From contig JBEWZL010000053.1 of the NCBI GenBank assembly GCA_045837725.1, forward strand, positions 124,001-158,781: a DNA stretch of 34,781 nt, read 5' to 3'. The position numbers were made by a program, and so were the translations under genes. Shown one piece after another: positions 1,846 to 34,200 of the stretch. Each line of letters begins with the position of its first letter. The stretch's first letter is position 1. The DNA comes from Vermamoeba vermiformis. Taxonomy: Eukaryota. The notes under the pieces were generated by a model. The model saw nothing but the letters and a program-made list of their open reading frames with translations, was not told the origin of the DNA and made no database searches.

Positions 1846-4800
1846 TTATATTTCAGGAGCAGGCTTATCATTTTGCAAATAGTGTTGCAATCTGCCTTCA
1901 AGCTCGAAGATTTTGTTCTTCAAGGTCATGTTCTCGTGGAAGGTTTTCTCGTACATGTCGCGGTAGTCTTCCTTTGTCGTCTCTCGCAGCTTCTTATTTT
2001 CCTTTTTAAGATCTTCGACTTGCTTGTGAAGATTTTTAACGCTGCTAGCCAAATTAGCCATTTCATCCTCCGTATCAAACTCCGATCCAACAGTGGGCAT
2101 GCCAGATGTGACCTTCCAGCTCGTTCCGCCTGAACCGGTAGTCGTGCCCTTATTAGTAGAGGTCTTCTGGTCGCTAGACGATGCGAACTTCTTGGTGTAA
2201 GATCTGATCACAGCTTGAAGTTGTGCTTCGTTCATTTGTCTGAGCTCTTCTTCAGTGTACGAGAACAACAAGCGAACTTTGGGAATGAACAAGACACTAA
2301 GCGAGACCATGGTGATGAAGAGAATGCAGCAGCAGAGCAGTGCGAATCTCACAATGACATCTGTCACCAAGAAAATAACGGCAATGAAAATTGCGATCAA
2401 GGCAAAGTTGTACATCTACGCAAAAAGAATAACGTTAATTAAAGCACTCAAATGACGTGCGTGTTTAGTGTGTACTTACAGCAAGACCGATGTACTTGGC
2501 TTCGTTGTAAAGTGTCAATCGCAACTTGCTCACGAGTGCTGCAATAATGATACCGAAAACGATAATGATGCCCTATGAAGTCAGTGTCAGTTACACGTGA
2601 TTTAACATTCAAATTAAGACGTGGACTTACGTTGTAGACGAGCAAGGTGACACCAGTGGGAAGATGGAACAAACAGAATGAGAACTGTTGCTCGCCTTCA
2701 GTTTGGAACACGTACTCAGCCGGTTGAAGTCCAGTCATGACACTCAGCACGAGAACTTCACCGAGCAACACAACAAGCACGCAGAGACCAACATCGCGAT
2801 CAGTGTATTTGACAAGTTGAAGTGACTTGTTTGAGAACAGCAAATAGATGCGTCCTGTCTTGGCGAACAAAGATCTAAAATAAGATATGAAATTTAAATT
2901 AGTACAATTGCGCTTGAATCACCGGAACAATTCAGTCGCGGAGAATATTCTTTTTGAAAGTGTGTAACTTGCTGTCAAAAGTTGCGGGCACGCGCACGTG
3001 TCATGTTGTCAAATTGAAAGTGTCACATCAGATTCGCGCAGCAGAATTTGAGCACGTGTCATTTGTGGTATTGCGCGAAACTCACCCAAACAACAATGCA
3101 AAACCAACAGGAAGCATCCAAATGAACAAATTGCAGCCAATATCAGTGTTCGATACGAATGCTGCGACTGAGCCGAACATCAACATGCCTCCAATGCACA
3201 TTGAAATTAAGAAAAGTCCACTTGAAGCGATGATCACTTTTGATTTGCGACTAAATAAAGCTCCGTTAGCATTTTACGCCGAACATTTAGACCACTTACA
3301 ATTTGATAGTAACGGCCAAATAGAAGATGGAACAAGCGGCGCAAAGACCAGTCAAGACCCACATACTGACTTGAAGGTCAAGTCCGACCTCAGCAAAACT
3401 CGCTAAAATAAGATCCGTGGTTAGTTCTTATGCCGAATAATAAAATTGATAAAAGATATAGCTTACAAGGTCGAATCCAGTTCTGCCATACTTGTTCGTT
3501 TTCAGTGACCCATTGGCACGCGACTTCCCAGTTTGTTTGGTTCGCGTAGAGTTGACCCAACATCAGGGTCATGTCATTGCCGTTCATTGAATAGGATTGT
3601 ACGAGGTAAGCAGACTCGGGGCTGAATTCCTTGAGAGTCGACCACATAATCTTTCCAAGAATTTCAGACGGGTAATACGTGCCTTTAGCTACCAAAGTCA
3701 GTCGCGGAAAATTTGGATCTCACAATGACCCATACGTACCGCTATTAGGGAGAGCCACGCGAACCAAATCGTACATATTGAACAACATATTAGGTCTCCA
3801 GGTCCAAAACAGGATTGGCTGGCGCTTGGAGTATCGTTCAGCGAGAAGTGCATTGAAAGCGGTTTGGCCGTTCAAATACTGCACGGTCAAAGTGTAGTTA
3901 TTATCGTTAATTATGTCCTGCTCGGGGCCACTCCACGATTTATCACCGATGATTAGAGTATTGTTGAAGTAGGCGGACACATTTGGATTGGAAAAGTCAC
4001 CAGCCAATGCGGTTGGAACATCTTTCAAGACGTAACGAGGAATATACCAACCTATTGAATATCACATTGGAATAAGATCTCTCTTTGTAAATTAAAATTG
4101 CAATGAGCGCGTCAGGTAGGGTTGCGATCCATATTTATCGGTTCTATAAAAGGAAAATCCTAACCCTTGAGGCACGCGGCAACGTAAAATTCAATTCAAT
4201 TATGAAATTACATTAACCCAAAAATAGAAACACGTTAATAATTAACAGGTGATTTTTCGTTAATTACAAGCGGAATGTAATTCTCCATCAACACAGCAAA
4301 TTTTAAAAAATTGGTAAATTCCGTGACGGCGAAATAGCGGGATATTAAAGGTGTAACACCATTTTCAATGCACTGAGAACTTACCCGTCGAACCAATCAC
4401 TCCTTGCGGTCCAGCTGAAATAATCGTTCTGTCGTCGTAAAAGTACTTCTGCTCCTGGGCGGCACGCGTGGACGGCCTAATAAATTCAAAGTAGCTCGTT
4501 AGTTAGTCCACTAATAGCGTTAGTAGGTCCCGCCTACTCACCAATACTCGAGACACGCGTGAATATCGCCATTAGCAATTTGTTCCCATACTGCCAAAGA
4601 GTTCGCTACGACGAGGTTATTTGGCACTCCCGCAACTTCATCAAGCAGAATGCTAACGATGAGCGAATGCAATGCAGACGTTGAGTAGCCAGTGGTCGAG
4701 ATATTAACGTGGTTTCTGGCGTGGTATCCTAAACATAGCAACAAGAGGTTAAAATTGCAACAATTCGCGAGCTAAAATAAGCATTAATTAAAGTACGTAC

Positions 4801-4930
4801 CATCAGGCTTTGGTCGATTTAAACACGAAGGACGATCACCGGATGAAGTATATTGTTGACTACTCGTATAAGATGCAAGAGCGAGCACTACTATAAATAG
4901 CGTAGCAAACGTAATGGAAGATCCGACCAT
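1846..4930 (-). CDS. Class C (GABA-B-like, 7tm_3) GPCR paralog 1 with signal peptide, OpuAC/ProX-like substrate-binding ectodomain and C-terminal coiled coil. Exons approx. 4930-4801, 4728-4542, 4476-4385, 4051-3740, 3688-3467, 3402-3300, 3250-3086, 2875-2631, 2573-2480, 2415-1846
   Basis: Spliced frame is intact. 7TM class C motifs: SKVIIASS, GFALLFGSLFAKTGRIYLLF, YNEAKYIGLAMYN, LFIPK. Ectodomain motifs GDIHACLEYW, GWYIPRYV, QPILFWTWRP and EVACQWVTENEQVWQNW resemble the OpuAC/ProX family. Confidence 0.85.
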
Positions 4931-5741
4931 TGTATATTGTTTTCGGTTAGGATTATGAATGAAGCCGCGTGGCACTTCTAATGTAGTGGCAAAACACAAT
5001 GATTTAACCGGTGATTGCGCATTATATGCTACGAGCTGTCACTTGTCTACCGCCAATTAAAAGATCATCGTAACAACTCGATTATCAGGGATTGCAGTTA
5101 ATTTGTCCGTCAATATTCATTTAAGAACGTATATATACACTCGCGACGGTGGTGGTGAATGAATTGGAACAACTTAAAAAAAAAAATAAGATCCGGTCTG
5201 GCATAAAAATGGTGATTGTATTTACGGAAAAATTCAATATATCACCATTGTCACTTCCGATCGCGTGTTGTAAGTTGACTATATTTGGCTCAGTATCTTT
5301 AAATTATTTCATGGTACTGGTGACAAAACAAGCGTGCTCCAGATACTTACAAGTAAGTAATTCAAATCTAGACAACTTGATACACAAGCTGTTCGGGTAA
5401 TTGCTTGCAATCACCGGAAGATCTGGAACGTTTGATCAGATTTAATTTTTAAAATTTCAGAAGTCGCCGTTTACGTACCTTATCAAATGGTATTTTTTTA
5501 CAAAATAGGTAGTCGAATTATTGTTGGAAGTATAAAATTATTTGGCAACGTGGAGCAGACATTCTGTTCGGTTCGTTTCGATCAAGCATCCAAAACTGCT
5601 TCTTTGATGTCATCCAACGGTAGATAGCTCCTCCTACCCAAGCATATAAGGAAGATAGTATCGTGTCAAATCAGTTGTGTTTATTGCCAGCGCTAAAATG
5701 AACAAATCAGGTTTTTGAACACCGGAATGCGATAAAGACGT

Positions 5742-8700
5742 TTAGGCCCATTCGCAAGTGGTAAAGGCAGTCTCTTTGACAAGACACTCTTTGTACCACA
5801 ATTGATGTTTCACTGAACCAACACCGTTCGGAACGGAGAGTGTTGTTGTCGATTGAGGTGCAACGAGTTCAATACCTTGCATGCCAATCACTCGATGAGT
5901 GAAACCACTTGTCAAGTCAGCTGAGAGTACGAGAACGTTAGAACAACACGAACTGCACGTGGAAATAGCTCAAACGTACTTCTGGTGGAAGTGGCTTGAA
6001 CGGTGAAGTTACTGGTGGGACCACTCGAGCATTGCGAAGGAGGTGTGACGGTGACAGTTGTGACAGGACCAATGATCACTTCACATCCTCCCCAGTTGCG
6101 AATCATAGACAGTTGATCGGCGGTGAGGTCTGAAATAAACTCGAGTTATTATGACTATCTTTTGTTATGGCAACAATGTTATGTACCGTGGAAGATAAAA
6201 GCAGGTTCAGTATCGATCTCAGCAGCGTTCTTGAGAGCAGCAGTCTTATTCATGCCGAAAGAAGTGATGTACATGAGTGCCATTTCTTCGCCAGCGGGAA
6301 GAATTGTAAGGTAAGCTGGGCTCACAACGTATGTACCTGAAAGTTTCCCACTGGCGTAACATCGGCTTGTCTGATCCCGACCCTTTGGACCTGAAGAAAA
6401 TTTGATTCATACATTTAATTCGATTAATACTAATAGCTACCTCTACCGTGCACAGAGAATTTTGTATAGGCATTAAGAGAATCTTCATCGTTATTATTGC
6501 TACCCTTGTCCCCAGCTTGGAACGGCGAACTAATTACTAGATTAGACATTTCAGATAGCTAGACGTCATCCTGTCACATCACTTACCCAGTGTAGTATCG
6601 CCCATTGTTATCGATTGGACTGATATCCGTACTGTACACGTTTGTAAACCAGTCACCCCACAATCTCACTCGCTCGGGTGTGCTTCCAGTGTTCTTGATG
6701 AATACTACTTGGCGAATGTAACTTGTGGCTAGAAGACGGATCGTTGAATTAGCCTCTTCAATCGAATTGATTGCACGTACCGTTTGGCACACTGAAATGA
6801 ATGTAGACTTGGAGATTTTGATAACGAGCGCGCTCACCCAGGTCCCTCTCTCGGTAGTCTGGGTAATTAGGACCAAAAATAGCACTCGAGAGACTGGTGC
6901 AAGTGAAGTTTGCTGTTGGAACAAAAGTATCTTCACTTATGCTAGTAGTCGAATTGAAACCAGGCTGCAGTGGTATTTCTGTTAAGGGTTAGCAACTTGC
7001 GAATGAGTTTTTGTTTTCTTACGGTTGATCCAGAAAGACATCGCCGTCAACAAATTAGTTGAGTCTGTAGGCCTTAGGTAAAGATCACCAACGCCCATCC
7101 ACCAACCATTTTTTAATTCCCACTTATATGGAGCCTTTATAGATTTGTGAGAAGTACTGTAAACAAGATATGAAAACTTACCGTTCTATCTTCATTAAGT
7201 CCGAATTCTGCCTGCATAACCGAATCCGCTCCCACTAAATCATTCACGGCTACACTTTGGCAGGTCGATTGGCCTTGAGCAAGACAAACTAATACTAGTG
7301 TAACAAGCGCCAATTTTAACACCGAAGACTTCATTGCTGTGCCCGAAAGAGATGAGCCAGCTATGATGCTTAGTAGTGAGACTAAGTAGTTGAACCCAAG
7401 TGACAATCCACCACTCGTTTTCCCCTGTGGTGATGTGCTTTGCGGAGCTGATTGAGTGCTGGGTACTGCGGGAGCTGCCCTTTTGCAAGCGGTGAAGGCA
7501 GTCTCTTTGACAAGGCACTCATTGTACCACAATTGATGTTTCACTGAACCAACACTGTTCGGAACGGAGAGTGTTGTTGTCGATTGAGGTGCAACGAGTT
7601 CAATACCTTGCATGCCAATCACTCGATGAGTGAAACCACTCGTCAAGTCAGCTGAGAGTACGAGAACGTTAGGACAACACGAATTGCACGTGTAAATAGA
7701 TCAAATGTACTTCTGGTGGAAGTGGCTTGAACGGTGAAGTCACTGGTGGGACCACTCGAACACTGCGAAGGAGGTGTGACGGTGACAGTTGTGTCAGGAC
7801 CAATGATCACTTCACATCCTCCCCAGTTGCGAACCAGAGACAGTTGATCGACAGTAAGGTCTGATTGAGCAATTAGTGACTTCCAAGTACAAAGATGAAG
7901 ACGTACTGTGGAAGATAAAAGCAGGTTCAGTATCGATCTCAGCAGCGTTTTTGAGAGCGAGAGTTTTGTTCACTCCGAACGAGAGGATAAACATGAGTGC
8001 CATTTCCTCGCCAGCAGCAAGAGTCGTGTAGTAAGTGGGGGTAATGAGGTAGTTATCGTAGTCGCCTTCAACAGAAACACTTTGATCGCGACCTCTGGGA
8101 CCTTATAATACTTAAGTACTGCGCTAGTGACATTGTAATACTACCTTTAACGTGCACAGAGTTAATTATGTTCGGGAGTGAAGAAGCCGGATCATTCTTG
8201 TATTGGCCCAGATCCCCATCTTGGTACGGAAAACTGACAAATTGCGTTAATACCAATTGAATGTTGATGCTCACAATTTACCCGGTATAGTAACGGCCTC
8301 CGTTGTCTATAGGACTCACATCCATTGCGTAATCGTTTGTGTACCAATTGCCGTACAACTCAAATCTCTCCATTACACTACCAATGTTCTTTACGAATAG
8401 AATTTGGCGAATGTAACTTGTTTCTGGAGATTTATAACAGTTAAATAGCATTAAAAAACTGAAATTCGGGATTTAGCAACTAAATTTAGGCCGAATACGT
8501 ACCAACCGGAACGCTTGTATGAACATATACTTGGATGTTCTGGTATCTCCCACGCACTTCGTAGTCCTCCTTTCGGTAGTCCGGATAAGTAGGACCCCAA
8601 ATTCCGCTCGAGTCGCTGGTGCAAGTGAAATTGGCGGTTGGAGTAAAACCCGTTTGAGTGCCCGAGCTGTAAGTACTGTTAAGCCCGGGCTGAAGAGGAG

Positions 8701-9130: not shown

Positions 9131-9462
9131 TGTGGTCGATGCAATGCATGTTAAAAAACGTTTGCGTGAAACAAAGTTATCACGTGTGTTATTTTTTACC
9201 GGTCTTTCAAAATGAAAATTCAATAAGCACCGACATTCTTTCGGTCATTTTAAATGTCTTGACAATGTTTTTATATTTTCTTTATTTTTGTTAACTTTAC
9301 ATTGTTTAAAATACCGGATCGGGGCAAAACGGTAGAAAAAAGTGCCGTCCGAAAGGTTGCGTAAGATAAGGCCTTGTTCTTTCTTTAGAGCTACATCAGA
9401 CGCACTTGAGTAATGATTGCGGGCATAAACTAAAAATACAATTTATTGCACATCCAAAGTAA

Positions 9463-12409
9463 TTACTGCTCGGTACTAAGAGTTAACTGTTCGTAGAATC
9501 TAAGCTTGCCTTCGAGCTCGAAGATTCTGTTCCTCAGTATCGTGTTCTCATGCGAGAATTTTTCATAAAGGGCACGGTACTCGGATTGTGTTTCGTCCTT
9601 TGACGTCAAAGGAGTATCCCGCAGTTTCTTATTCTCCTTTTTAAGCTCTTCGACCTGTTTATGAAGACTCTTAACGCTATTAGCGAGCTCGACCATTTCG
9701 TCTTCAACGATTGATCCAGATTGGGACTTCCAGCTATTGCCGGATTCGACGCCAGTACCGCTACTCTTCTTTGTAGAATTCTTTTGATCACTCGATGATG
9801 CAAACTTCTTGGTGTACGAGCGAATTACAGCTTGAAGTTGTGCTTCGTTCATTTGTCTGAGCTCTTCTTCGGTGTGATTGAACAACAAGCGGATCTTGGG
9901 GATGAACAGTACACTAAGCGAGACCATGGTGATGAAGAGAATGCAGCAACACAGCAGTGCATAGCGAACAATGACGTCGCTGACTAAGAAGATAACTGCC
10001 ACGAAGATTGCGATCAAGGCAAAGTTGTACATCTACGCAAAAAACAATATCGGTAATTAAGGCACTCAAATAACGTGCGTGTTTGGCGTGTACTTACAGC
10101 AAGACCGATGTACTTGGCTTCGTTGTAAAGTGTCAATCGCAACTTGCTCACGAGTGCTGCAATAATTATACCAAACACGATGATAATGCCCTAATTATCT
10201 GACGTTAGTTATTTGTTGCTTGTACAAAGGAGTTGTGTTCTTGATCTTACGTTGTAGACGAGCAAAGTGACACCCGTGGGCAAGTGATACAAACAGAACG
10301 AGAACTCTTGGTCGCCTTCTGTTTGGAAGGCATATGTCGCGGGTTGCATGCCAGTCATGACACCAAGAACGATGATTTCACCAACGAGGACGACGGCAAC
10401 GCAGAGACCGACATCACGATCAGTGTATTTGACAAGTTGAAGTGACTTGTTCGAGAACAGCAAATAGATGCGTCCTGTCTTGGCGAACAGAGATCTAAAA
10501 AAATATGAAAATGAAATTAAATTAGTACAATTGCTTGAATCACTGGAATCATAGGAACAATACACGCGGAGAATCTTTTTGTTGAAAGTGTGTAACTCGC
10601 TGATTTGTCAAAAGTTGCGGGCACGCGCACGTGTCATGTTGTCAAATTGAAAGTGTCACATCAGATTCGCGGCAGAATTGAGCACGTGTCATTTGTGGTA
10701 TTGCGAGAAACTTACCCGAACAACAAGGCAAAACCAACAGGAAGCATCCAAATGAACAAGTTGCAGCCAATATCAGTGTTCGATACGAATGCTGCGACTG
10801 AGCCGAACATCAACATGCCTCCAACGCACATTGATACTAAAAACATTCCACTTGATGCGATGATCACTTTTGATTTACGGCTAAATTGCAGTTAGAATGG
10901 TATACTAAGGCTACGGAATAATTCAATTGTCTAAATATGGAAAGTTTAACGCGCAAATCTATTTCAAAACTTACTAGTGAATCACGACGCTCATGTAAAA
11001 TATAGCCGCAGCAATGCACAATGAAGTTAGGACCCACATACTGATTTGAATTTCTACGCCGACTTTCTTGAACGAAGCTAAGAATAGGATTAAACTCTGC
11101 AAAAAACGCGATCTGATCGAGACTTACAAGGACGAATCCAGTTTTGCCAAATTTGGTCGTTTTCATTAAGCCATTCGCAGGCAGCATCATAGGCTGTGTA
11201 ATTCTTGCTGAAAATTTGCGCGAGGAGGTTGTTCATCGTGTTAGTATCCATAGAATAAGATTGGACCAAGTACGCAGCGGCAGGAGAATACTTCGCGAAG
11301 TTCGTCTCCCATGAATTTGCCCAAGATTTCAGAAGGATAATATATAGCTATATGAATCGTGATTAGTATGATTAGAAAGTAAGCAGAGCCAAGCTTACTA
11401 TTGTTAGGCAATGATACGCGAACGAGATCGTAGTTGCTGAAGATCACGTTGGGTCTCCAAGCGAAGAATAGCATAGGCTCTTGATTGGCGTATTTAGTAG
11501 CCAACATAGTATTGAATTCAGTGATGCCGCTCAATACTTTGACGGTCAAGTTGTATCCGTTCGAATCTATGATCTGCTGTTCAGGTCCAGCCCAGTACTT
11601 GTCGCCCAGAATGAATGTATTGTTGAAGTATGCGGATACATTAGGATTGGCAAAGTCGCCTGAGAGGGCGGTAGGAACATCTTTCAAAACGTAACGAGGC
11701 ATGTACCAGCCTAAATATGAAATCGCATCAGATCCACTAAACCATGCAGAATGTCAAAGTGTACAACATTGTGCGCCAAATTTAACAGTTTAACCCAAAA
11801 AAGGTAAAATATCGCGCCACGCCGCATAATTTTTTTAAATTTCTGAATTTACATTTAAATTGCCACCATTTTATAACTCACCAACTGTGCCTATTATGCC
11901 TACAGGACCAGCTGACGTGATTGTTTTGTCGTCATAAAAATACTTTTGCTCTTCAGCTTGTCTAGTTGAAGGCCTTTTTGAAAAGCGGATCAAGTTAGTG
12001 ACTCAATTTCTCAATTAGGAATTATAAGATTCGGTCATACCAGTACTCCATGCATGCGTGAATCTCACCAGAAGCAACGCGAGGCCACACATCGACCGCA
12101 TTTGCCGGGATCAAGTTGTTCTGTTCGCCGATCACTTCGTCGAGCAGAATGCTGACAATATGAGCGTGAATGGCTGAGTTAGCGTTAGCAGGGAAGGATA
12201 TGTTCACTACATTGCGTTCGTTATAACCTACATCGTATCTATGTTAGTATAAGCTTTTGAAAGTAAAAATAGAGCTTGCCATCTGGTTTTGGCAAATTGA
12301 GACACGAAGATCTGCTTGACGATTGAATGATCTGTTGCGATGAGACTTTAAGAGCACATATCACTACGGCAACGAGGATTGTCACGTTGCGGAAGTTTAG
12401 TAGCGTCAT
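9463..12409 (-). CDS. Class C GPCR paralog 2 (OpuAC-like ectodomain). Has one extra base near 11292 (assembly error or pseudogene) and a GC-AG first intron
   Basis: Same exon structure and motifs as paralog 1 (GEIHACMEYW, GWYMPRYV, FFAWRP, AACEWLNEND, LFAKTGRIY, LFIPK). The frame shifts within exon 11347-11127. Confidence 0.8.
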
Positions 12410-13232: not shown

Positions 13233-15883
13233 TTATTGCGATTCTGAGTCGGATCCATGTCCAACCTCTTTTTTGTAAACTTGGCTGTTGCTCATTTTCA
13301 AGCGACCTTGCAGCTCGAAAACTTGGTTCTTAAGCACCATAGACTCGTGGTAATATTTTTCGTAAAGTTGGCGATATTCTTCGGGCGTTGTTTCTCGTAA
13401 CTTTTTGACTTCTTTTTTCAGCTCTTCGTTTTGACTTTGCAAATTTCTCATAGAACTAGCCAAATTCGCCATTTCATCTTCGAAAGAAGATCCCGGGAGA
13501 GTACTAGTCTTATTGGTGTCTTCTTTTTTCGCTGAACCCTTCGAATTCTTTTTGTCGCTGGAGGAGGCAAACTTCTTGGTGTAAGATCTGATCACTGCTT
13601 GAAGCTGTTGCTCGTTCATTTGCAAGAGTTGTTCTTCAGTATAAGTAAATAACAACCGAAGCTTTGGGATGAATAAGACGCTCAACGAGATCATTGTCAA
13701 GAACAAAACACACGCGCAGATCAATGCGAATTGCGCGACAATGTCCTTCACCAAGAAGATCACAACAATGAAAATTACGACGAAACAGAAGTTGTACATC
13801 TAAAGAATATGTTAGTAATGCTTGGAGGCAAAGAGAAATACTTACGGCCCAACCAATGTATTTGGCTTCATTGTACAGTGTCAATCGCAGTCTGCTAATG
13901 AGAATCGAAATTATGACACCAAGTATCATAACAACGCCCTAAAGTAGAGATTAGCATTGACAATACGCATACTATAATGGCACTCACGTTAAAGATGAGC
14001 AAGGCTACACCAGTCGGGAAGTGGAACAAACAGAAGGTAAAGTCCGTGTCTCCGAGGCTTTGGTACACGTAATCCGCAGGTTGTATAATAGTCATTGCCA
14101 CGAGGATCACAAACTCGCCAACCAGGACGATACCAACACCAAAGCCAACATCACGATCAGTGTACTTGACGAGTTGAAGTGACTTGTTTGAGAACAACAA
14201 ATAGATGCGTCCTGTCTTGGCGAACAGAGATCTGACGAAGATCGGTTAGCACTGCTTTGACACGTGTAACAAGTCGAAATCTCAAATACGAAACTTACCC
14301 AAACAACAATGCAAAACCAACAGGAAGCATCCAAATGAACAAGTTGCATCCAATCATCGTGTTTGAGACGAATGCAATGACAGAGCCGAACATCAACATG
14401 CCTCCAATGCACATTGAGATCAAGAACACACCACTCGACGCGATGATCACCTTTGACTTGCGGCTTAACAGAAGAATTAGAATAGACTACAAAATCGGTG
14501 ATAAGCACGTACAATTTGATTACTGATATCAAGTAGAACAACGTGCAAGCGATGCAGAAGGCTGTTACGACTTGAATAGCTGTTCTTAGATCAAAAGAGA
14601 CCTCTTCGTACTTGGCAACACGAATCCAATCGGTCCAAATAATCTCGTTCTCGAGGATCCAATTGCACGCCACTTCACTGATTGATTTGTTCTCGTAGAC
14701 TTGCTTCAACATGTCGAGCATGTCAGCTTCTCCGATGTTGATAGTTTGAATCAAAAACATCGCTTCATCGCTGTAGTCTTTAATATTCGGCCACGTCATT
14801 TTACCCAAGATTTCAGGTGGATACAGGTGGGCTGAAAAAATTTGGTTAATTCTTTTGTAAACAAGATCTAATACTCACAATCGTCCAAATAGCTAACACG
14901 TATAAGATCCAGCGTAGTAGTCAACATATGTGGCTCCCACAAAAAGCACAAAAATGGCTCTTTCTTCGAATATTTGTGCGTTACAATGCTGATCAGTTCA
15001 TCGATGCCAGACAAGGTCTGAACAGTTAAAGAATAGTTGTGCTTGGCTATGATGTCCGGTTCAATCGTTATCCAGTCCTTGTCGCCAATGATCAAAGTGT
15101 TGTTGAAATACGATGCTATTTTTGGATCCGAAAAATCGCCGTACAGCGCTGCCGGCACATCCGCTAAAACATAGCGAGGAATGTACCAACCTATAATATA
15201 GTATCAATATATGGCCTTAAGGCACAGGTGCTTCATAATAGAATGTACTGAACGTGAGAAAATAGATTTCTTTTGGGGAGATTGTAATCTCCTCAAACTC
15301 CGTACCGGATACGTTAAGTAACGATATAAATATCCTTACCCATCTGTCCGACAAACCCTAATGGGCCTGCCGCGAGAACTGTTTTATCATCGTTGATGTA
15401 TTTGTCCAACAATTTCCATTGTTGAGCCGGCCTATTTTCATGAATGAATGAGATTGACAATTCAAACTCGACGCGTGTGAAGTGTTATCAATCAATATTA
15501 TAACCTTACCAATACTCGAGAGAGGCATGAATTTCTCCAGAAGCGACAAGCTCCCAGACGCTGTTCGGATCGTTAATCGCCACTTCTGTGTTTGGCACTC
15601 CGACCACTTCAGCTAATAAAAGTCTCGCAATTGTGGTGCTAATTCTAGAGGTTTCCCAATTATTAGAACCGAAGCGTACAACATTATGAACATCGTAGCC
15701 TAGAAAGACAAGGGCGATCAGTACGTGGACACTTACTATTTTAGAGCAAATTGATGACTATGAATTAAAATAATTACCTGCATGTTTCGTCCTATTTAAA
15801 CAAGTCGGTATGTCTGGCAAGAGCTGCGCGGCTGTCAGAGTTGACAGCAGCACTAATAACCAAAAGAGATCTTTTAGTCGCAT
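13233..15883 (-). CDS. Class C GPCR paralog 3 (OpuAC-like ectodomain), apparently intact
   Basis: Signal peptide MRLKDLFWLLVLLSTLTAAQ; VVRFGSNNWETSRISTTIARLLLAEVVG; GEIHASLEYW; GWYIPRYV; FLWEPH; 7TM region; coiled-coil tail. Confidence 0.85.
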
Positions 15884-16730: not shown

Positions 16731-18739
<2,009 letters not shown>

Positions 18740-19035
18740 CTGACACTAGCAATACTATAATACAAAATAATATACAAGGAGTTGTGTTGTTGCAGTTCAG
18801 AGCGAAAAATTTGTTTTGAAACAATTCTCGATCAAATTTCTACCCGTTACCACAAGACCGTTATAAATCGTTACAATCATATTAAACATGCGTGGGTAAG
18901 AATATGCTGGAATTAGACACGTGTAGGATGAAAAGTAGCGGCCTTCAAACACGATTCGGATCTTGCACTGCTAACGGATTTTGGTTGCTAATGCGCTAAT
19001 AATTATAATACAATTTTATTTGTATGTTCTGGAGA

Positions 19036-20094: not shown

Positions 20095-20245
20095 TGTTGG
20101 CTTTGTATTATTTCGCGTATTGTAATTGCTCTTTCGAACGCCAGAAAACTGATCAAGAAAATAATCACGTGTTTTTGTCGGTGCCTCCCAATCAAACTTC
20201 GAACCATTTTCATATTAAACCGATTTATTGTATTCGTACAAATGC

Positions 20246-21704
20246 TTACTTCTTTTGTTTTTTATTTTTATGCTTGCTGGTTTCGAGCTCGGCAGCAGAA
20301 GCTTTCCTTTTCTTGTTAGCGGGCTGTTTCTCTTCGGATGCGCTTTCTTCGCTGCTATCATCGCTACTATCCTCACTGCTGCTTTTACCTCCCTTAACAT
20401 ATTCTTGATTTTCATTGTCTGAGTTGTCCTCGTCGCTGCTGGATGATGAATCCTCGCTCTCATCTTTTTCTTTCTTAACAACGACTTCTTTCTTTGGTTC
20501 AACTTGCATCTTATCATTGTCCTTCTTTTTTTCTTCTTTAACGTCCTTTTTGTTGTCTTTCTTCGCGACTTCTTTCTTTTCTTCCTTCTCGTCATCACCC
20601 ATAAAGAACGAGTCCTTCTCTTTCTTTGCGGGCTTTTTAGCGACCTTCTCGGCGGCATCTAGATAACAAATTAGTCTTAATTATTGTAATAAATATGTTA
20701 ATAATTACCTTCAGGACGTTGGAATGAGCCCTTGGGCTTTTGTTCCTTCGGCGTGGTTTGTTTGGCGTTAGTGTTCTTTGCAACAGCATTATCACTCTTT
20801 GCAGGCTTAGTTGCATTGTTAGTCTTTGGTGCAGGAGCTTGAAGCGTTTTGTTTAGCAGGCTTATTGACGGTTTGACCATTCTCGTCGAATTCTTCGGTC
20901 ACATCCATTGTTGCGTCCTTATCCTTCAACTCTCCAGCAGCTTTCTTCTTCATTAGCTCATCTCTGATGCTCGATTGCAATTTAAGAATTCTTTCGTTGG
21001 TCATAGGAGCTTTGGGGAACAATGAAATATATTTCAAGTGCGCGGGGAAGTGCTATGTTAGACACACTGTCAGTACGCGTCGTAAGGGAATTTAATGCTA
21101 ACTAATGTACCATTACGTAGGTCATGTCGTCGTTAGCCTTTTTCAAGTCTTCTTTGTGCTTTTCAAGTTGTTGTTTTTCCTCGGCAGTGAGCTGATCCTT
21201 CGCTTCAAGAGCTTTAATCGCCTTGTTTAACTTGGCTTCAATTTTCATAATTTTCTTTCTCTCTGAAAAGATAAATTATTAATCTACGCATGTAAGATAT
21301 TCTAACATTTTTAAATGGTTACCTAAAAAGCGAACCAATTTATATTTAGCTGAAAATTTATCGACTCTGGCTTTCTGTTGTTTATCCTTTAGTTGACCTC
21401 GAAGATCTTCCAATTCCTTCTCCTTGGCTTCTTTAACTTCGGCAGGCAAAGTGTCTCCGCGGCCCTAATTTTACGTTGCGATCAGATTTTGGATCACGAT
21501 CGGGATCGCCGAAGTTGATAATAATTGAAACTAAAATACGCATAAAATCACAATAATTCACATCATCATAAAAAAAGTGCAATTACTGGGTTAACTTACC
21601 TTGAGTAATCGCTCAATGTCACGGATTCGCTTGCCAACGCCAGGAGGCTTTGCAGGGCGGTCACCCTTATTTTTGTTGAATTTTTGAGTCTTATGGCCGT
21701 TCAT
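20246..21704 (-). CDS. EFG1: rRNA-processing protein Efg1 with long low-complexity C-terminal tail. One extra base near 20842
   Basis: KRIRDIERLLK, SAKYKLVRFLERRK and DDMTYVMHFPAHLKYISLFP match the Efg1 family pattern. The tail is K/E/S-rich. Confidence 0.85.
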
Positions 21705-21825
21705 AGTTATTGATAGATGTGCTACTCGGTTCGCAGGCTCAGATGAACTGAAAAAAAACTTGGAACGACTGATACTAACATAATTTTTCGCGGCCAAGGA
21801 GATCTACACGCGCACCAATAATAAA
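21705..21825. promoter_or_regulatory. Probable bidirectional promoter (121 bp) between EFG1 and the NOL8-like gene
   Basis: Divergent ATGs at 21704 and 21826. Confidence 0.6.
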
Positions 21826-24626
21826 ATGGCCAAAGATTTACAAGAAGACACCGATAAGGATTATATTAGGCTCCATGTTGGTGGTTTGTCCGCAGATGTC
21901 ACAGAGAAAGATCTACGGGACAGGTATTTAATTATTATAAGGCCTAATACTACAATAAAATAATACCAATATATTAATCAAATTATATTGACGAAGTAAG
22001 GGATTTTTTTGATTTAATTGACAAATTATTATTTTAGATTCAGCAGTTTTGGTAAGATAATGAGCATAGATGTTGTAAAGGGATACGATTGCGCATGCAG
22101 AGGATTCGCATACATCAATTTCGATAAGTCTGCCGATGTAAAGAAATGTAAGCGTAGATTCAACAAAACGAATCCTGGATCGCGATCTGACCAAGTTAAT
22201 TTCCACTAGGCATATCAATTCTTGATCGAACAAGGTGGCGAGGAAATTTACTGACTATTCAGAAGGCTAATGTAGATTATATGACAAGGTACGTTCCTAA
22301 CCGATCGAATCCAAAAGAAGCGGTGCTGACATTATTACTAGACGCAATGCCGAATTAGAAGCTCGTAGAAAACGAGAGCAAGAAACTTTAGAGAAGCGAA
22401 AAGAGGCTCAGGCTACTTTAGAAGAAAATGCCGCTTCGAAAGATAAAAACGGCTTGTGGGTCGTCAATAAGCATGGCCTTGTATTGCCTGTTCTTAGAAT
22501 TACTAATAATAATGGCGTAAGTACTATCATAATATTTATTATAGTACTGGTGTCCTAATATCATATTTTAGAAAATTGTCAAGATCAATCCGAACAAGTA
22601 CAAGAACGCCGTAAAGAGATTGGCTGCCGATAGCTCAGGAGAAGAAGAACAACATTTTAGCGATGATGAAGTTGGCGAAGCACCAAAGAAAATAAGCGAG
22701 GATATTGAAATTATTCCTGAAGATCAGATGGAGGTTGACGAAGAAGAAACTCCTGCTACTAAAGCGGATGTTACTTATCCATTTAGCGACGACGAAGATG
22801 ATAGAAATTATGAGAGCAGAGACGAGGATGAAGACGTTCCCGTTGGTATGTTACAGCTAGTTTCTTCGGCTAGTCGATCTAATTTTTTTGATTTAGTTCC
22901 TGCAAATGTACAAAAAGAAAAGAAATCAGCGCTGTCAATTTTAGAACAAATGTTCCCCGAAGAGAAGGAGTTTATTCGCAAAAAAGATGCGAAGATGGAG
23001 AAGACACGTGCGATCGAGCTGAAAGAAACAGGACCAATTGGACCCGGTGTTAAAGAGGCATTGGCAAAAATCGAGGCTAAGAAAGCCGCAGAAAAGGCTG
23101 CAGCGACGGCATCAACTAAACAAGGTACGTAACTCTAAATATTTTGATCCGATCTGAAACTCAACTCAATAATTAATTCAGTTGCAAAACCTGAGCCTGT
23201 TAAAGAAGTAAAGTCTAAAGAAGTCGAGAAAAAGGTAGTAGCTGAGCCAGTCAAAGAGATCAAGACTAAAGAAGTCGAGAAAAAGCCAGTAGCTGCAGTC
23301 GAACCTGTCAAGGAAACTAAGCCGAAAGAGGCTGAGAAAAAAGCAGTGACTGAGCCCGTTAATGAGACTAAAGCCAAGGAAGTCGCCGTTGAAAAGAAAT
23401 CTGAGCCTGCTCCTCAACCTATTGTAAATACTAAGAAACGAAGCCGCGAAGAGAGTAGCAGTAGTTCTTCAAGCGAAGAAGAGGGCGATAACGATGATAG
23501 CTCGAGCACGACTAGCAGCGCGAGTAGCAGCACTGAATTCTTTGAGAGCATTAAGCGTCGAAAGATCATGGAAAGTGCTCAGCAAGAGAAATCAGCCGCG
23601 GCATCAGAAAAGACTAAAGCCAAGCCAGCGGATAAAAATAGGACTAAGCCTGTCGTTCAAGAACAACCAAAAGCACAACCGCAAGTCGAAGAAAGCAAGA
23701 AAATCGAAGAAAAAGAGGAAAGCAGCAGCTCTTCGAGTGATGAGGACGAAGAGGGTAATGACAGTGACAGCGACAGCTCGAGCACGACGAGCAGCGCTAG
23801 CAGCAGCACTGAATTCTTCGAGGAAATCCGACGAAGAAAGGCATTAGAGCAGCAAGCAAAGGACGAGAAGCAGGCCGCTAAAGATAAGAAGAAAGCTAAG
23901 AAAGAGGCTGCTGTTGCCAAGCCTGTTGAGCCCGTGAAGAAAGCGGAGACAAAGAAAGAAGATGTGCAAGCTGTTGCCAAGCCTGCTGCACCTGCGACAC
24001 AACAAACTCCTGCAGCCACCACTGACACCCAAAGCATGCAAGTCGATGAAGAGAATGTAAGTCCCGTGTCCTCTTTTGTGATTGTTACTCACTAACGTGC
24101 ATCCTAGGGCAAATCATGGGTGGACATTATGACTCAATACGAGACCGAGCGATTGAAGCCTGTCACAATTTTAGCCCCGAAAGCAGTGTGGAAGTTGTTC
24201 CCTGACCGTGATGACAGCGCTGCTGCAGCACCGATGGCAACCACCACGAGCGGCAATGCAATGGAAGTTGAGCCCACAGCCGCCAAGCCTGACGAGGAGG
24301 TAAGTCTGAAATACCTTTGGTTGATATAGACGTGCTAACACGTTCCTTAGAAAACGGACACAGGCGTTGCTAGCAAGGATTACAAACCATTTTTCCCGTT
24401 CATTGGCAACGGTGAGAAGCTTATTGGTGACACTTTAGTTCGCACGAAGACTTTGTAAGTGCCTTCGTATAGTATTTGTTGTTGTATAAATTTTAATGAT
24501 GTTTATGGTAGGGAGGAAATTGAGGACGAATGGAGAAGAGAAAAAGTATTCCTTACGCAAGATTACAAAAAGAAGCAGAGTATTGCCGTTAAAAAGAGAC
24601 GAAAGTTGGAGAAAAAACAGCGATAA
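21826..24626 (+). CDS. NOL8: Nucleolar protein 8 (NOL8/Nop132)-like RRM protein
   Basis: N-terminal RRM (RLHVGGL...RGFAYINF...CISILDRTRWRGNLLTIQKA), NOL8-type motif WVVNKHGLVLPVLR...KIVKINPNKY, acidic/Ser-rich middle, C-terminal W..EK..LTQDYKKK. TAA at 24624-24626. Confidence 0.8.
23182..23840 (+). repeat. Intragenic repeats in the NOL8-like gene: four EPV(K/N)ExKxKExEKK-like units (approx. 23190-23400) and two SSS..E..DSSSTTSSASSSTEFFE.I.RRK blocks (approx. 23450-23565, 23720-23840)
   Basis: Visible in both the translation and the DNA (ctcgagcacgac...agcagcactgaattctt occurs twice). Confidence 0.85.
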
Positions 24627-24869
24627 TAAACAATTAATTAAGCGAACGCACCGTTCTCATCGATCGCAGATCACATCTAATCCGCTCGCAGATCGACGTT
24701 CAAAACAGCACTACGGAAGTACCCCCTCATTATAGCATTAAAATACATAAAAACACTGATTCTTTTGTTCTAGGTTTAGATTGAATAAAGTTGATAAAAA
24801 AAAAGCAACGTGCCGAAAAATCAATGTGAACAGTTTGTGAACGAGCACTATTGCAGTACAACAAATAAT

Positions 24870-27135
24870 ATGTCAAGCAAAGAAGGTGTGATCGTTGTTG
24901 GATACGGCCGAATTGGTCAAGTCCATCTCGCGAGCGTTTTGGCGCATCCCAAGTTGTTCTTGCATACCTTGGTTGGCAAGGATGAGACCAGATGCAAGAC
25001 TGCCCTCGCTACTGCTTTGAAGCCTCACTTGAACAGAGAAGGAAAGTTGAAGGATGGTGCTACGCCAAACGCTTTCAGCGCTGATAAGTTCAAGGAACTC
25101 ATCGAGAAGAACGATCCGATTTTCGAAAACGCTCGTTATATCGTCATCGCTTCTCCGACTCCTAACCACGCCGAGTTGATTGAATTGGCTTTGAAGTACA
25201 AGAAGCCCTTCCACATTCTTTGTGAGAAGCCTCTGACCACCGATCCGGCAATCAACAAAGAATTGTACGAAAAGGCACAAAAGGCTGGTGTTGCCCTCAT
25301 CACTGGTAAATATTTTATAATATTTTAAAAATATTTGTGGCGAATTATAATCGATTTTTCATCCAGCGTACAACAGAAGATTTGATCCTCACTTCATGAA
25401 GCTCAAGGAAACCGTTCAAAACAAGGCTGGCAAGGTTCAAATTTTGAGATTAACGTCAAGAGATCATCCCAGCTCCTCCTTCAGAATTCTTGGACTCTGC
25501 TGGTAAGTCGATCTGAACGCAAACCGTTACATGATCTGAACCCGAAAAAATTTAGGAACCTTTTTTGAGGATTTCAGCACTCATGATATTGATATGGCTC
25601 GTTGGTTGGTCGGCGAAGAGCCTGAAAAAGTTTGGGCTTGCGCTTCTCAACACTTGCCAGTGTTCAAGAGCAAGGGCATCGATGACACTGCCGTCATTGT
25701 GCTCAAGTTCCCTAGCGGCTGTTTGTGCTTGATTGAGAACAGCCGTCGCACTACTTACGGCTACGACCAACGCGCTGAAGTTTTGGGCACCGCTGGCCTC
25801 GTGGTTGCCAACAATCCTAAGCGCAGTGCCGTCACTTGGCACACCAACGCCGGTGAGGTTGATGACTTGGCCGTCTATTCTTTCCCCGAGCGTTACAAGG
25901 AGGGCTACTTCAACGAGTTGGATCACTTGGTGCAAGTCGCTCATAACACCGAGAAGGCTCGCGTCAATGCTGACGATGTTATCAACAACGCCAAGTTGTG
26001 CATGACTTGCCAAGACTCACGTGTCAAGCAAGTTGAAATCAAGGACCAACACTTGACTGAGTACCCTATCCCTGCCTTCCCCACCAAGTCCACTGGCACC
26101 GTCAACTTTGCTCTATTCGGCGTTGGTCGCATGGGCTGCGTTCGTGCTGATGCTATCATGGCCAACCCTAATGCTCGCTTGTTGGCTGTCTATGACGTCG
26201 ATCAAGAACGCGCTGCTATGATTGCCAAGCAATACGGATGCAAGCACGCTGTTAACCCTGTCGATGCCATGTTGCCTGAAGTTGATGCCGTTGTTATTTG
26301 CACCACCACTGCTGCTCACTGCGAGTTGATTTTGATGGCTGCCAAGGCCAAGAAGAGCGTCTTTGTCGAGAAGCCTGTCGCTTTGTCCACCGCTGACACT
26401 GAGCTCTGCGTCAAGACTTGCCAAGAGAACGGTGTTTTCTTGTACTGTGGCTTCCACCGCCGTTCTGACGCTGAGTTCCGTCACGCTTATGAAGGTCGCT
26501 CCAAATTAGGAAGTGTCGAATTGATCCGCATTTCCAGTCGTGACGCCGCTGACCACAACTCTTTGGCTTACTTGCTCAACAGTGGCAACTACTGGTACGA
26601 CAGCTTGATCCACGATTTTGATATTGCTCGCTGGATTGCTGGCTGTGATCCTGTCGAGGTGTTCAGTGTTGGCAGTGCTTCGATTCCTGAGCTCGCTGAA
26701 CGTGGTGACATTGACAACGTTGTCGTTGTTCTTCGCTTCCCTAACGGCGCTATTTGCACTATCGATAACAACCGCCGCGCAGGTACGACTAATACTTACC
26801 ATAGATTATTCAAATATTAATGTTGTTGTGTAGTTTATGGCTATGATCAACGCTTGGAGGTGTTCGGTGCCAACGGCATGGTTGAAGTTCACAACAAGAT
26901 CCAATCCGAATTGACTTACGGTTCATTCGACGGCTTTGCTTACGACAAGACTCAAGCTGGTCTGACTCGTTACAAGGAGACTTATGTCAACGAGACCAAT
27001 CACTTCATCAACTTGATGTTGGGCGTTGAGAAGACTCCTCGTGTCTTCCACTACGACTCTGTTCGCAACGCTAAGATTGCCGACGCTGCCTTGGAGTCCT
27101 TCAAGACTGGCAAGCCTGTTGCTCTTCACTATTAA
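24870..27135 (+). CDS. Tandem double-domain Gfo/Idh/MocA oxidoreductase (myo-inositol 2-dehydrogenase IolG-like). Exons 24870-25305, 25367-25502, 25556-26782, 26834-27135. One extra base near 25469
   Basis: Two complete motif sets: GYGRIG/CEKP/AYNRRFD/SRD/HDID/YGYDQR and GVGRMG/VEKP/GFHRRSD/SRD/HDFD/YGYDQR. Strong C/T-ending codon bias. Confidence 0.9.
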
Positions 27136-30981: not shown

Positions 30982-31244
30982 ATATCTGCAATAATTTCAA
31001 ATTCCTAAACGTGTCAAAAAACTGACAGAATCCGGTCGCGTGTTGTATTGCAAATTATTTCATTAATTAACTGAAGCACCACGATATTACCTGCGGAAGA
31101 TTCGCTGGATCGAATTGCAGGTTGCATTCGTTACTCGTACAAAGAGGTAAATCAGTTGTTTTTAAGACTTAAAACGCAAATCAATAGAAATAAATATAAT
31201 ATCGTTGTCATAATAATATTTTTAAATCTAGATAGAATTACAGA

Positions 31245-34200
31245 ATGCGCTTTTCACGGATTTCGGCAACGTATTGGAACGTCGCAGCGGTATTTCTAGC
31301 AATAATGGTTCAAATAATTACAGCGCAAGTACCCGTCAATTCTACGGCGCTTTCTTCTCCTCGAACAGCAGTTTCATCTGTTTCAATTGGAGATCGAGTG
31401 TTCTTCGTTGGCGGATTCGACTTCCACCAGAAGGTTTCGAGCGACAAGATTGATATATTTGACGCCATTAATCAAACATGGGCCACTCCTCTCTCGCTTC
31501 CGAGTGCTCGAGGATTCGTGACACCTGTCGTTGTGGATCCAAATATTTATTTTCTTGCTGGAATTTCCCACGACAATCCTCCCTTTCTGTATCAGCCCTC
31601 AAACAGGTCCTTCGTTCAAATGCAAAGTGCTGGACCGACAGTTCGAGAGCCCAAACAACTTTCGCTGTTCAATTCAGTTTTGACAGTTGTTGGAACTTTC
31701 ACGGTGGATTTTTACGACATGACCAGCGGCAATTGGAGTTCCAACAGCAACTTGACCGAAGTGATGATGTCATTGACCAACGCACGGATATTTGCTTACC
31801 AACAATACGTCTTTGTCATTGGCGGCCAAGAGTTCAAAACCGACGAAATTTCATCGCACGCTTGGATCTTCAACTACAACACGAATGAACTCATCAAATA
31901 CGACAACGTGACTACAGCTAATGTCACATTCGAGTCGAGCACATACGACGTGTCCAACAACGTGTTGGTGGTGCGATTGAGTGACAGGTGTCTGCTGTAT
32001 CATTTCCTCCGAAACGAGTGGCACGAAGAATTGGACGCGTTCAACATTGTCAGCTCAGTCACGCAAAATGATCTCACACATCTATTTGGCGATAATTACG
32101 TTATTTACGATTGGATCAACCGTGCTACAATAACCAAGGGGGCTACATTTATCAAAATAGGCTTTCTCCTCAATGACACGATTGTGTATATAATGGACGA
32201 GGCTATGGTCGTAGGAACACAAAAAACAAGCCTTCCTAACGTAAAAGTTACTGGATCCGTTCGATTTGCACAGCCCTGGTCCTCGACACTTTACACCTTC
32301 ACCGACGATCAAAGTATTTATTGGTTTAACAGCCAAGATTCGAGCCTTACAATAATCCCAAACATGACAGACATCCGTTCAGTCATCGCAGACGGTGACA
32401 CACTGCATGTCTTCGATTACAGCTCGAATGAAGGAGTCATGAATTGGCGCTTATTTGATCCCAGTCCCATGTCCGTAATCGTACCCCGAAAGCTCAAGTA
32501 CCCAGTGGCTCCTCAAGCCCTTATCAACGGCGTATTTGTGGACCCTTATCTCGGCACGATGTCAATCACGGACTCCAATGACATTCAATTGTTCAGCAGT
32601 CAAGGTTATATAGACATATTTACCAGTGTTATTTTCACGGCGCATGATAGCAACACATTCGTTGTCATGCAGGATGCCCCGCCACAAAACGGGCTGCAAC
32701 AATACAAGAAAATGGACGTGTACAACTACGTTAATAACACTTGGACGACGAAAGATATGCCCGACGAGCTGTTTTTGCCTGCAAACAGCAAGAGATATCG
32801 CGAGACGTTCATGAATGCCGCAGGGTTCAACGACAGCATTATGGTGTGGATTTCTGGAGTATACGGAATATACGACATTAAAGCAGACAACTGGACGACA
32901 TACACCAACGTAACATTAGGAACAGAAGAAAGACCAATCATGAGGACGCGATATCTTGACGCACTTCATTTTCAAACTCCGGTTATTGACGGCATTGCGT
33001 ACCTTAATCACGAAGAATTCAATTATTTCTACAAATTTGCACCAGATCTGCTCTCGTGGGATAAAACAGCGCCAACGTATTCAGCCGAAGAAGATCCGTT
33101 GCTGATTCAACAACCAGTGGCGTTCAATCACACGCTGTACGTGTCCATGCGACAGAGCACGAACATCACGTACTTGTACTACTATGACACTGCGCTCAAC
33201 AGCTGGCAAGCCACTTTGTTGCCATCGCCATCGACCTTCGTGGCAATCACAGCGGCCGGAGATTTCCTCATCGCCGTTTGTTCGGACATAAAGTTGCACA
33301 TTTTCTCCGTCAGACTCGGACAGTGGAACACGCAAGAGTTGGACTATGAGGTCATTCCATCAACGATCATTCATGTTGGCAACGTCACGTTGATCGCTGG
33401 TGGCTCCACTGTATCTTCAGGCTTGTATTCGGACTCGGTGCTTGTCGTGTCAGACGACGTTGTGTTCATTGAAAAAGCACCTGCGACTCCGACCAGTACC
33501 ACTAACCAGCCTTCCGATCAGCCGCAATCAACCACTGGTCTCACAGTCGGCGAGTTGGTGGCAGCGATTGTCGTTCCCGTCGTAGTAGTTCTTGCCGCAG
33601 GACTTGCTTTATTACTCATTCTGTTACGAAGACGCAAGAGAAGACAAACAACGACGACAGTTGGATTGGAACAACAGTTCAGTGAATGGTTCACACCGTT
33701 CAGTGAAATCGAGTTCAGAGAACAGTTGGGTCAAGGAGCGAACGGCCAAGTGTTCAAAGGCAAGTGGAAGAACACTGATGTTGCGTTGAAAGTGAGCATG
33801 ACACAAGCGAATCAAAGTGTCATCTCCGAACTGTCGCTGATGATCAACATGCGACCTCATCCAAATGTCGTGCAACTTCTTGGCTTCAGTGTGCATCCTG
33901 AAACGAACAGTGTCATACTGATTCTCGAGTACTGCAACGGCGGATCGTTAGACAAGCAAATTATGGAAAAGAATGCGCCGGAAATGCCAATCAATCAAAA
34001 GCTTCAGTTGTTGCAAGGCATCGCTCGTGGTGTCATTCACTTGCACTCGAACAACATTGTGCATCGAGACTTGGCAGCACGCAATGTGTTGTTGCATCAA
34101 GGAGAACCAAAACTGACAGACTTTGGCATGTCACGCATTGTGGACGATCAACAACAACGAGGCACAACCAAATCAGAACTTGGACCCATTCGATGGATGT

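Follow-up and report, generated by a model that had tools for sequence, protein, structure and literature searches.

Mesothelin and megakaryocyte potentiating factor derive from one secretory precursor that gives rise to one soluble and one glycosylphosphatidylinositol (GPI)-anchored protein, and read-through (conjoined) fusion genes form from tandem duplicates when a stop codon and spacer are lost and same-strand neighbours become one open reading frame (ORF). Here, we describe a locus of Vermamoeba vermiformis in which two paralogous secretory units, A and B, are joined in a single frame on the minus strand of contig JBEWZL010000053.1 (positions 124,001-158,781; a stretch of 34,781 nucleotides (nt) referred to as the window, to whose whole length all coordinates refer). 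Compared to the mesothelin precursor, the order of the A/B pair is reversed, as mesothelin has its soluble part first and its GPI signal at the true C-terminus; further, that precursor is cut by furin, has no internal signal peptide, and consists of parts that are not paralogs. Unlike ordinary conjoined genes, the A/B join sets a C-terminal sorting signal against an N-terminal one, and because these signals adjoin, processing enzymes in the lumen of the endoplasmic reticulum (ER) could undo the fusion at the protein level.

A GPI-attachment signal that leads in frame into another secretory protein has been described for a chimera of DAF and hGH, where the internal GPI signal was reportedly still processed at its normal site to give GPI-anchored DAF, the hGH signal peptide could stand in for the hydrophobic part of a GPI signal, and a C-terminal position of the GPI signal was not strictly required for processing (Caras 1991, PMC2288913). 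The chimera was an engineered construct in mammalian COS cells, while the A/B pair is natural and its second part, a paralog of the first, brings a complete signal peptide of its own. Viral envelope polyproteins (bunyavirus Gn/Gc and flavivirus prM-E-NS1; reviews, PMC7926653, PMC10372224) are similar in that one ORF encodes an anchoring hydrophobic segment and then an internal signal cleavable by host signal peptidase. Of these features, a single spanning ORF and an internal signal with a small-residue -3/-1 site (by pattern) are present in A/B. In contrast, the viral anchors are true transmembrane segments and that of A is weak and GPI-type, and the A/B gene is cellular, possesses 14 spliceosomal introns, and would yield products that are paralogs. 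Searches of open-access full texts and preprints yielded no natural example in which a GPI signal continues in frame as a signal peptide.

The explanation favoured here, tentatively and at somewhat less than an even chance, is that tandem paralogs became joined by a derived read-through fusion, with possible processing of the product. Judged from the sequence, the junction is real and goes beyond a chance open frame, and comparison with relatives makes the probable origin now clear, namely tandem paralogs of a GPI-anchored family, the first copy of which is missing its stop codon and spacer. A deletion-fusion of tandem genes had been listed as an alternative in a preliminary description of this DNA, and it is to such an origin that the relatives point. 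This origin is compatible with polyprotein processing and also allows a recent non-functional fusion.

Anatomy of the junction and comparison with relatives

The preliminary description reported a stop-free read-through from the tail of A through SSLSGTA into a second signal peptide, and exactly this arrangement was present on the minus strand. A stop-to-stop ORF (7137-7700(-)) whose translation contains ECLVKETAFTACKRAAPAVPSTQSAPQSTSPQGKTSGGLSLGFNYLVSLLSIIAGSSLSGTAMKSSVLKLALVTLVLVCLAQGQSTCQSVAV spans the junction, and once the 14 introns are removed the pair forms a single 862-codon ORF. A bicistronic arrangement, with two ORFs parted by a stop codon, was not seen, as the spliced model has no in-frame stop from 9130 to 5742. 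The anatomy of the fused pair, given here with high confidence, comprises the following junction features, for which the reference points are three related database proteins (P0011, P0012, and P0013).

7478-7407 (-): linker of Ala/Ser/Thr/Pro/Gln, AAPAVPSTQSAPQSTSPQGKTSGG, alignable with its counterparts in P0011, P0012, and P0013
7415-7407 (-): candidate GPI omega site SGG, the final three linker residues
7406-7356 (-): hydrophobic part of the putative GPI-attachment signal, LSLGFNYLVSLLSIIAG, homologous to the terminal hydrophobic stretches of all three relatives
7355-7353 (-): codon TCA (Ser) where P0011 stops, a single base change from TAA or TGA
7355-7335 (-): bridge SSLSGTA, seven codons from the anchor signal to the ATG of unit B
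7334-7272 (-): ATG and signal peptide of unit B, MKSSVLKLALVTLVLVCLAQG (MKSS...AQG), with predicted cleavage before QSTCQSVAV

Beyond the TCA codon the frame of A continues for 414 codons, and the ATG of unit B, which has a purine at -3, occurs in frame 18 nt past that codon. The gap between A and B is zero, unusual for this window, where two further gaps measured between genes on one strand span 332 nt and 811 nt. An in-frame join would by itself occur by chance in about one case in three and is weak evidence; the case instead draws its weight from the absence of a stop, a spacer, and a polyadenylation (poly(A)) hexamer, and from a tail homologous to those of relatives whose stop falls there. 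A reading of TCA as a stop codon was ruled out, as TCA stands for Ser within the tail and also in exon 8, at the Ser of GSVK, a position occupied by S or A in relatives. Between the bridge and the DNA preceding A's ATG no similarity was detected (1763 of 2000 shuffles scored as high), and the 40 nt 5' of the two ATGs were likewise dissimilar (1421 of 2000 shuffles).

The last exon and tail of A were searched among proteins of 57-184 residues, which returned nine word-sharing candidates, three of which (P0011, P0012, and P0013) were relatives with exon 8 plus a tail. In all three, a conserved ...CLVKETAF.AC was followed by an Ala/Ser/Thr/Pro linker, a hydrophobic stretch, and the end of the protein, as follows.

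P0011: ...KTSGASSIGLAALSVIGAIALL
P0012: ...KSDASSLGFAALSLVGAIALL
P0013: ...STAKLSVVLLSLVAVFAMF

These ends agree to about one residue and P0011 was found on contigs of up to 1.26 Mb, which argues that they are stop codons and not the ends of contigs. When the two are aligned without gaps from their common KTSG, P0011, the closest relative, stops after 22 residues, and the 23rd codon of A is the TCA at 7355-7353. Small residues are required at the omega, omega+1, and omega+2 positions of a GPI signal, and in this region ..KTSGG of A aligns with KTSGA (P0011) and KSDAS (P0012). Since all three relatives end straight after the same linker and hydrophobic tail, the tail of A, read by homology, is the family's GPI-attachment signal that lost its stop, not a stable transmembrane helix. 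The features of such a signal present in A include an ER signal peptide, small omega residues after the linker, and a moderately hydrophobic stretch; a stop right after the hydrophobic stretch is absent in A and present in all three relatives.

The hydrophobic stretch of A was weaker than those of its relatives on the Kyte-Doolittle scale (15-residue mean, 1.83 compared to 2.41-2.77) and far below the membrane span of a receptor kinase in the same window (19-residue mean, 3.18). Summed Hessa values were +1.41 for the stretch of A and -1.2 to -2.3 for the relatives, and in the best 19-residue windows were +3.7 for A's tail, +3.1 for the other junction segment, and -3.1 for the transmembrane segment of the kinase. 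Of the earlier reading of this segment as a GPI signal or transmembrane helix, the first part gained from the relatives that end right after it, while the second lost ground to its weak hydrophobicity.

A cryptic intron in the tail (donor 7466, acceptor 7382 or 7361) would shift the frame and produce a stop before B's ATG (..APASHY* or ..APALAHLFRAQQ*). Using a splice-site matrix built from the 14 real introns of A and B, the donor GCA|GTACCC scored 6.2, within the range of true donors (4.4-12.1), but the acceptors (3.5 and 2.2) fell below all 14 true ones (4.2-11.0). Such an intron would also remove a linker and anchor signal that are coding in all three relatives, from a tail with exon-like GC content (0.557 at 7477-7399), and out-of-frame joins mostly meet a stop by chance. 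It is a highly improbable account of the locus.

An error of sequencing or assembly, by which a true stop at 7355-7353 or a spacer was lost and A and B are ordinary separate genes, would need only one wrong base to erase the stop and would agree with the unfused form that is the rule among relatives. The junction, however, lies in unique sequence, as the repeat shared by A and B ends at 7477 and the expected stop position (7355) follows only 120 nt later, such that a repeat-driven collapse would not fall here. The window contains no N bases, the critical codons have no homopolymer run, and even with the stop restored B's ATG would be only 18 nt away, leaving an error quite unlikely.

The tail comparison bears equally on a recent non-adaptive fusion, in which stop-loss or a small deletion joined separate tandem genes and the joint product does not mature into two working proteins; A would lose its anchor, or B would be mislocalised or degraded, and the locus would be on its way to losing one unit. 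Consistent with this, the state in the relatives is unfused (three of three stop after the tail), TCA is a single base change from a stop codon, the hydrophobic stretch of A is already weaker than theirs, and neither hydrophobic segment at the junction is a convincing span alone when set against the kinase (Hessa values above). Were the event young, the intact features would need no selection. But stop-loss requires that only 18 nt lay between A's old stop and B's ATG, abnormal next to gaps of 332 and 811 nt, and a deletion must have begun exactly at the stop codon and finished in frame. Long purifying selection on B (omega, 0.24; dS of about 2; see below) suggests further that it was functional for most of its history. 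A non-adaptive fusion is possible, if somewhat unlikely.

One message and its possible processing

Two further features of the minus strand concern the transcription of the pair.

9131-9330 (-): AT-rich region upstream of unit A (GC, 0.315), the sole promoter-like spacer for the pair
5685-5680 (-): AATAAA, 56 nt after the stop of unit B and the first on this strand downstream of A's start

Unit A is separated by 332 nt from the stop of an upstream receptor gene, and the 150 nt upstream of its ATG have a GC content of 0.32 compared to 0.513 for the 150 nt upstream of B's ATG; for comparison, the introns have 0.34-0.35, the exons 0.47, and the tail of A 0.517. No AATAAA occurs on the minus strand between 9286 and 5685. 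All four of the other minus-strand genes checked end in TAA with an AATAAA- or ATTAAA-type hexamer 15-56 nt downstream. Because no spacer, AT-rich promoter-like DNA, or poly(A) hexamer occurs between A and B, the pair is probably a single transcription unit with one ORF. That there is no room for a separate promoter of unit B, as had been proposed, agrees with the zero gap and the exon-like GC content (0.513) before B's ATG. Spliced unit A holds 17 further ATG triplets before the ATG of B, and for this reason ribosomes scanning from the 5' end of a joint message would not be expected to reach the latter. If the DNA is right, the simplest source of B would be the latter half of a precursor of 862 residues.

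Two separately expressed, overlapping genes would require a start site for B inside the last exon of A and a message for A that is cut after the T of TCA, with the poly(A) tail completing TAA. Poly(A)-completed stops do exist in Blastocystis, where about 96% of 2,419 nuclear genes carry TGTTTGTT with at most two changes, exactly 4 nt after the site (PMC4159000). Like those genes, A has no encoded stop and a T (7355) where one is expected, and a poly(A) tail would make TAA exactly where the relative stops; B, in turn, still has a complete signal peptide, and a purine occupies position -3 of its start codon. Unlike in the Blastocystis genes, the downstream element is absent at A/B, the eight bases at the motif offset reading TCTTTCGG (four differences, counted by eye) and exact TGTTTGTT matches on the minus strand occurring only at 17584, 14032, and 2675. 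The other genes checked in the window have encoded stops, TAA with ordinary hexamers in all four cases, and neither a hexamer ahead of 7355 nor AT-rich promoter-like DNA ahead of B was present. We consider overlapping genes improbable.

For the favoured fusion, a route from one precursor to two proteins can be proposed. The signal peptide of A would take the precursor into the ER, where the internal GPI signal of A would still be used by GPI transamidase, with a cut at the SGG omega site that leaves A lipid-anchored. The freed C-terminal piece would start with hydrophobic remnants and B's signal peptide, and signal peptidase would remove the latter (AQG|Q) to give soluble B from QSTCQSVAV. Signal peptidase requires small residues at -3 and -1, and the signal peptide of B has A at -3 and G at -1; on paper, both enzyme sites at the junction appear intact, SGG for GPI transamidase and AQG|Q for signal peptidase. 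With the DAF-hGH chimera as a precedent, a double cut of the precursor into GPI-anchored A and soluble B would be plausible, though less likely than not.

A cut at the omega site plus removal of B's signal peptide appears to fit better than a viral stop-transfer anchor with an internal signal, since the segment of A alone is not predicted to span the membrane (+3.7 compared to -3.1 for the kinase). The mechanism advanced in the preliminary description, 'as in viral envelope polyproteins', would therefore not be the best model, A's segment being weak and GPI-type by homology. A stronger proposal is that selection has kept a two-in-one secretory precursor, with one messenger RNA and one ORF split in the ER by GPI transamidase and signal peptidase into equal amounts of a lipid-anchored protein and a soluble paralog, possibly as a surface heterodimer; this we regard as unlikely.

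Several observations weigh against a processed precursor. A recent, undecayed fusion would equally explain why B has an intact ATG and signal peptide, and a miscalled base or assembly deletion is a further, if quite unlikely, rival. The hydrophobic stretch of A is weaker than in the relatives on both scales, which could mean that the GPI signal has been decaying since the fusion. The DAF-hGH precedent was artificial and from mammalian COS cells. The junction ORF had no counterpart among proteins of 329-2000 residues (none of 3436 candidates), and the fused junction was seen in none of the three relatives, with database proteins of 185-328 residues not searched for it.

An uncleaved two-domain protein would instead be an old functional fusion, in which the hydrophobic segments form a helical hairpin or buried linker and A and B remain one chain with both domains outside the cell. 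The single ORF and the conservation of both domains, with their sequons and cysteines, would suit such a protein, and a hairpin would be favoured by the brevity of the loop that links the hydrophobic segments, SSLSGTAMKSS, which has a single Lys. Yet B keeps a Met and a cleavage site (AQG before Q) and A keeps SGG, all needless in a mere linker, and little credence is given to this possibility.

If the fusion is expressed and processed as proposed, the locus would be a natural test of GPI-attachment signal function away from the C-terminus and of a signal peptide that emerges mid-chain during ongoing translocation. It would offer eukaryotes, which to our knowledge lack operons, a means of producing two secreted paralogs at a constant ratio from a single message. 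In a precursor kept by selection, nature would have its own version of the 1991 DAF-hGH chimera, and cells would have a parallel to the glycoprotein polyproteins of viruses. Should the locus be no more than a recent stop-loss fusion or an assembly error, it would be of practical value, as gene finders would call an 862-residue two-domain protein where comparison with relatives indicates two genes of a GPI-anchored family.

Gene models and history of the duplication

Both gene models were hand-built from a three-frame print and then checked by script.

9130-7335 (-): unit A coding sequence, eight exons and 454 codons with no stop, the spliced frame uninterrupted
9130-8978, 8928-8814, 8703-8503, 8423-8282, 8233-8145, 8101-7907, 7860-7711, and 7651-7335 (-): exons of unit A
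9130-9071 (-): ATG and signal peptide of unit A, MQKTACKILLAFALVGIIYC, with predicted cleavage before QNSCQ
7334-5742 (-): unit B coding sequence, eight exons and 408 codons plus TAA (5744-5742), without linker or anchor signal
7334-7182, 7134-7023, 6978-6781, 6728-6587, 6529-6441, 6390-6187, 6129-5980, and 5920-5742 (-): exons of unit B
A 8022-7477 and B 6302-5746 (-): gene-conversion tract, 88.8% identity over 561 aligned positions including introns

Two intact units with seven matching introns each had been claimed, and the models bear this out, with eight exons and seven GT..AG introns (43-110 nt) per unit at the same positions and phases, donors of the type GTAAGY, GTACRT, or GTAGYW, and no frameshifts or stops in either unit. 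Each unit has eight cysteines, and the sequons NST, NFT, and NKT are common to both. Pieces of exons 3, 4, and 8 of unit A match fragments from relatives, and A and B are the only copies of the family in the window. The cleavage site of unit A was placed using the small-residue (-3,-1) pattern and the alignment with unit B; by the same pattern test, its signal-peptide core had a 12-residue Kyte-Doolittle mean of 2.82 with small or neutral residues at -3 and -1, and that of unit B (LALVTLVLVCLA / VLKLALVTLVLVCLA, followed by AQG|Q) a mean of 3.08. A short upstream ORF, MHCIDHNAKNGL (9149-9108(-)), begins 19 nt before the ATG of unit A and overlaps it out of frame.

Also borne out was the claim that unit B has no anchor, as B ends ..TTCEWA* directly after the shared domain. 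Read past the TAA of unit B, the frame (5741-5650(-)) gives TSLSHSGVQKPDLFILALAINTTDL, with a short hydrophobic run, and may be a decayed anchor signal. A tblastn match of P0013 extends six codons beyond B's stop and the short hydrophobic LFILALAI follows in that frame; together, these were too weak to call a relic anchor signal. The tail DNA of A compared to the DNA after B's stop aligned no better than shuffles (711 of 1000 scored as high).

Units A and B share 255 of 404 aligned residues, with the similarity uneven along their length. Over the first 263 codons, synonymous (dS) and nonsynonymous (dN) divergence from Nei-Gojobori counts were 1.97 and 0.47 (omega, 0.24), while over the last 148 shared codons they were 0.19 and 0.059 (omega, 0.31). 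Based on the values for the 5' part, the duplication is old and both copies have been maintained by purifying selection. Intron 7 is identical between A and B at 54 of 59 positions, compared to at most 65-82% over the shorter partner for the other introns, and outside the tract of high identity the DNA aligns in short patches only. The homology tract ends exactly at the stop codon of B (5746) and at 7477 in A. The pattern indicates that the 3' thirds of A and B have been recently homogenised by gene conversion.

Family and neighbouring genes

A HMMER search with an exon 3 profile, a complete pass over 1.84 billion representative proteins, returned 10 proteins at E <= 0.001, of which eight were short ORF fragments (66-143 residues) that resemble exon-by-exon calls from eukaryotic DNA lacking annotation. 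In one of these eight, P0004, the reading passes from exon 3 through an in-frame intron into exon 4; P0007 and P0009 were dropped before alignment as false and internally repetitive (seven and 11 matched stretches). An exon 4 profile against proteins of 82-2000 residues retained none of four candidates. None of the eight exon-level pieces of A/B matched a Pfam family at E <= 1, and among 11 fragments of relatives, five had weak Pfam matches (E, 0.049-0.17), all below curated cut-offs. PDB profile searches with two alignments (A4 and A5) had best E values of 1 and 0.47, judged to be noise, an ESM Atlas search with P0004 gave no usable match, and an AlphaFold2 model from a third alignment (A6; 12 rows, P0004 first) was unusable (mean pLDDT, 37.5). 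A GH16-like reading of an EIDTE motif was dropped for lack of any Pfam support. A scan of bacterial and archaeal genomes with the family profile reduced 27 pattern matches to one locus (L001, 10001-10084) on a Psychrobacter scaffold, which was full of stop codons and rejected as a chance GSVKHQLW match.

By these searches, the unit is an uncharacterised, rarely sampled, putatively secreted glycoprotein domain, and its family has so far been found only in what appear to be a few unannotated eukaryotic sequences. As predicted from A, B, and the relatives, a normal member of the family starts with a signal peptide and continues with a domain of some 380 residues that contains cysteines and N-glycosylation sites, after which come the Ala/Ser/Thr/Pro linker, the GPI-attachment signal at the C-terminus, and a stop.

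Units A and B are flanked by three tandem receptor-like paralogs (1846-5038, 9463-11753, and 13233-15203 (-)), each combining a coiled-coil tail with an OpuAC-type ligand-binding domain and a seven-transmembrane region, the last matched only weakly by 7tm_3 (E, 0.15). The window holds another in-frame two-unit gene, a cytosolic GFO/IDH/MocA oxidoreductase (24798-26820(+)) whose ORF continues past the C-terminal domain of one unit into a second Rossmann domain. The receptor kinase (31236-34265(+)), encoded by a single large exon, combines Kelch-type repeats on the outside with a strong membrane span, the only one, and a Tyr/Ser-Thr kinase domain. A Vps4-like gene (17109-18745(-)) consists of a MIT domain exon (18404-18745) and an AAA ATPase exon (17109-17549). 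On both strands of 20215-24095, long low-complexity ORFs rich in Lys, Glu, and Ser coincide with strong AT and GC skew.

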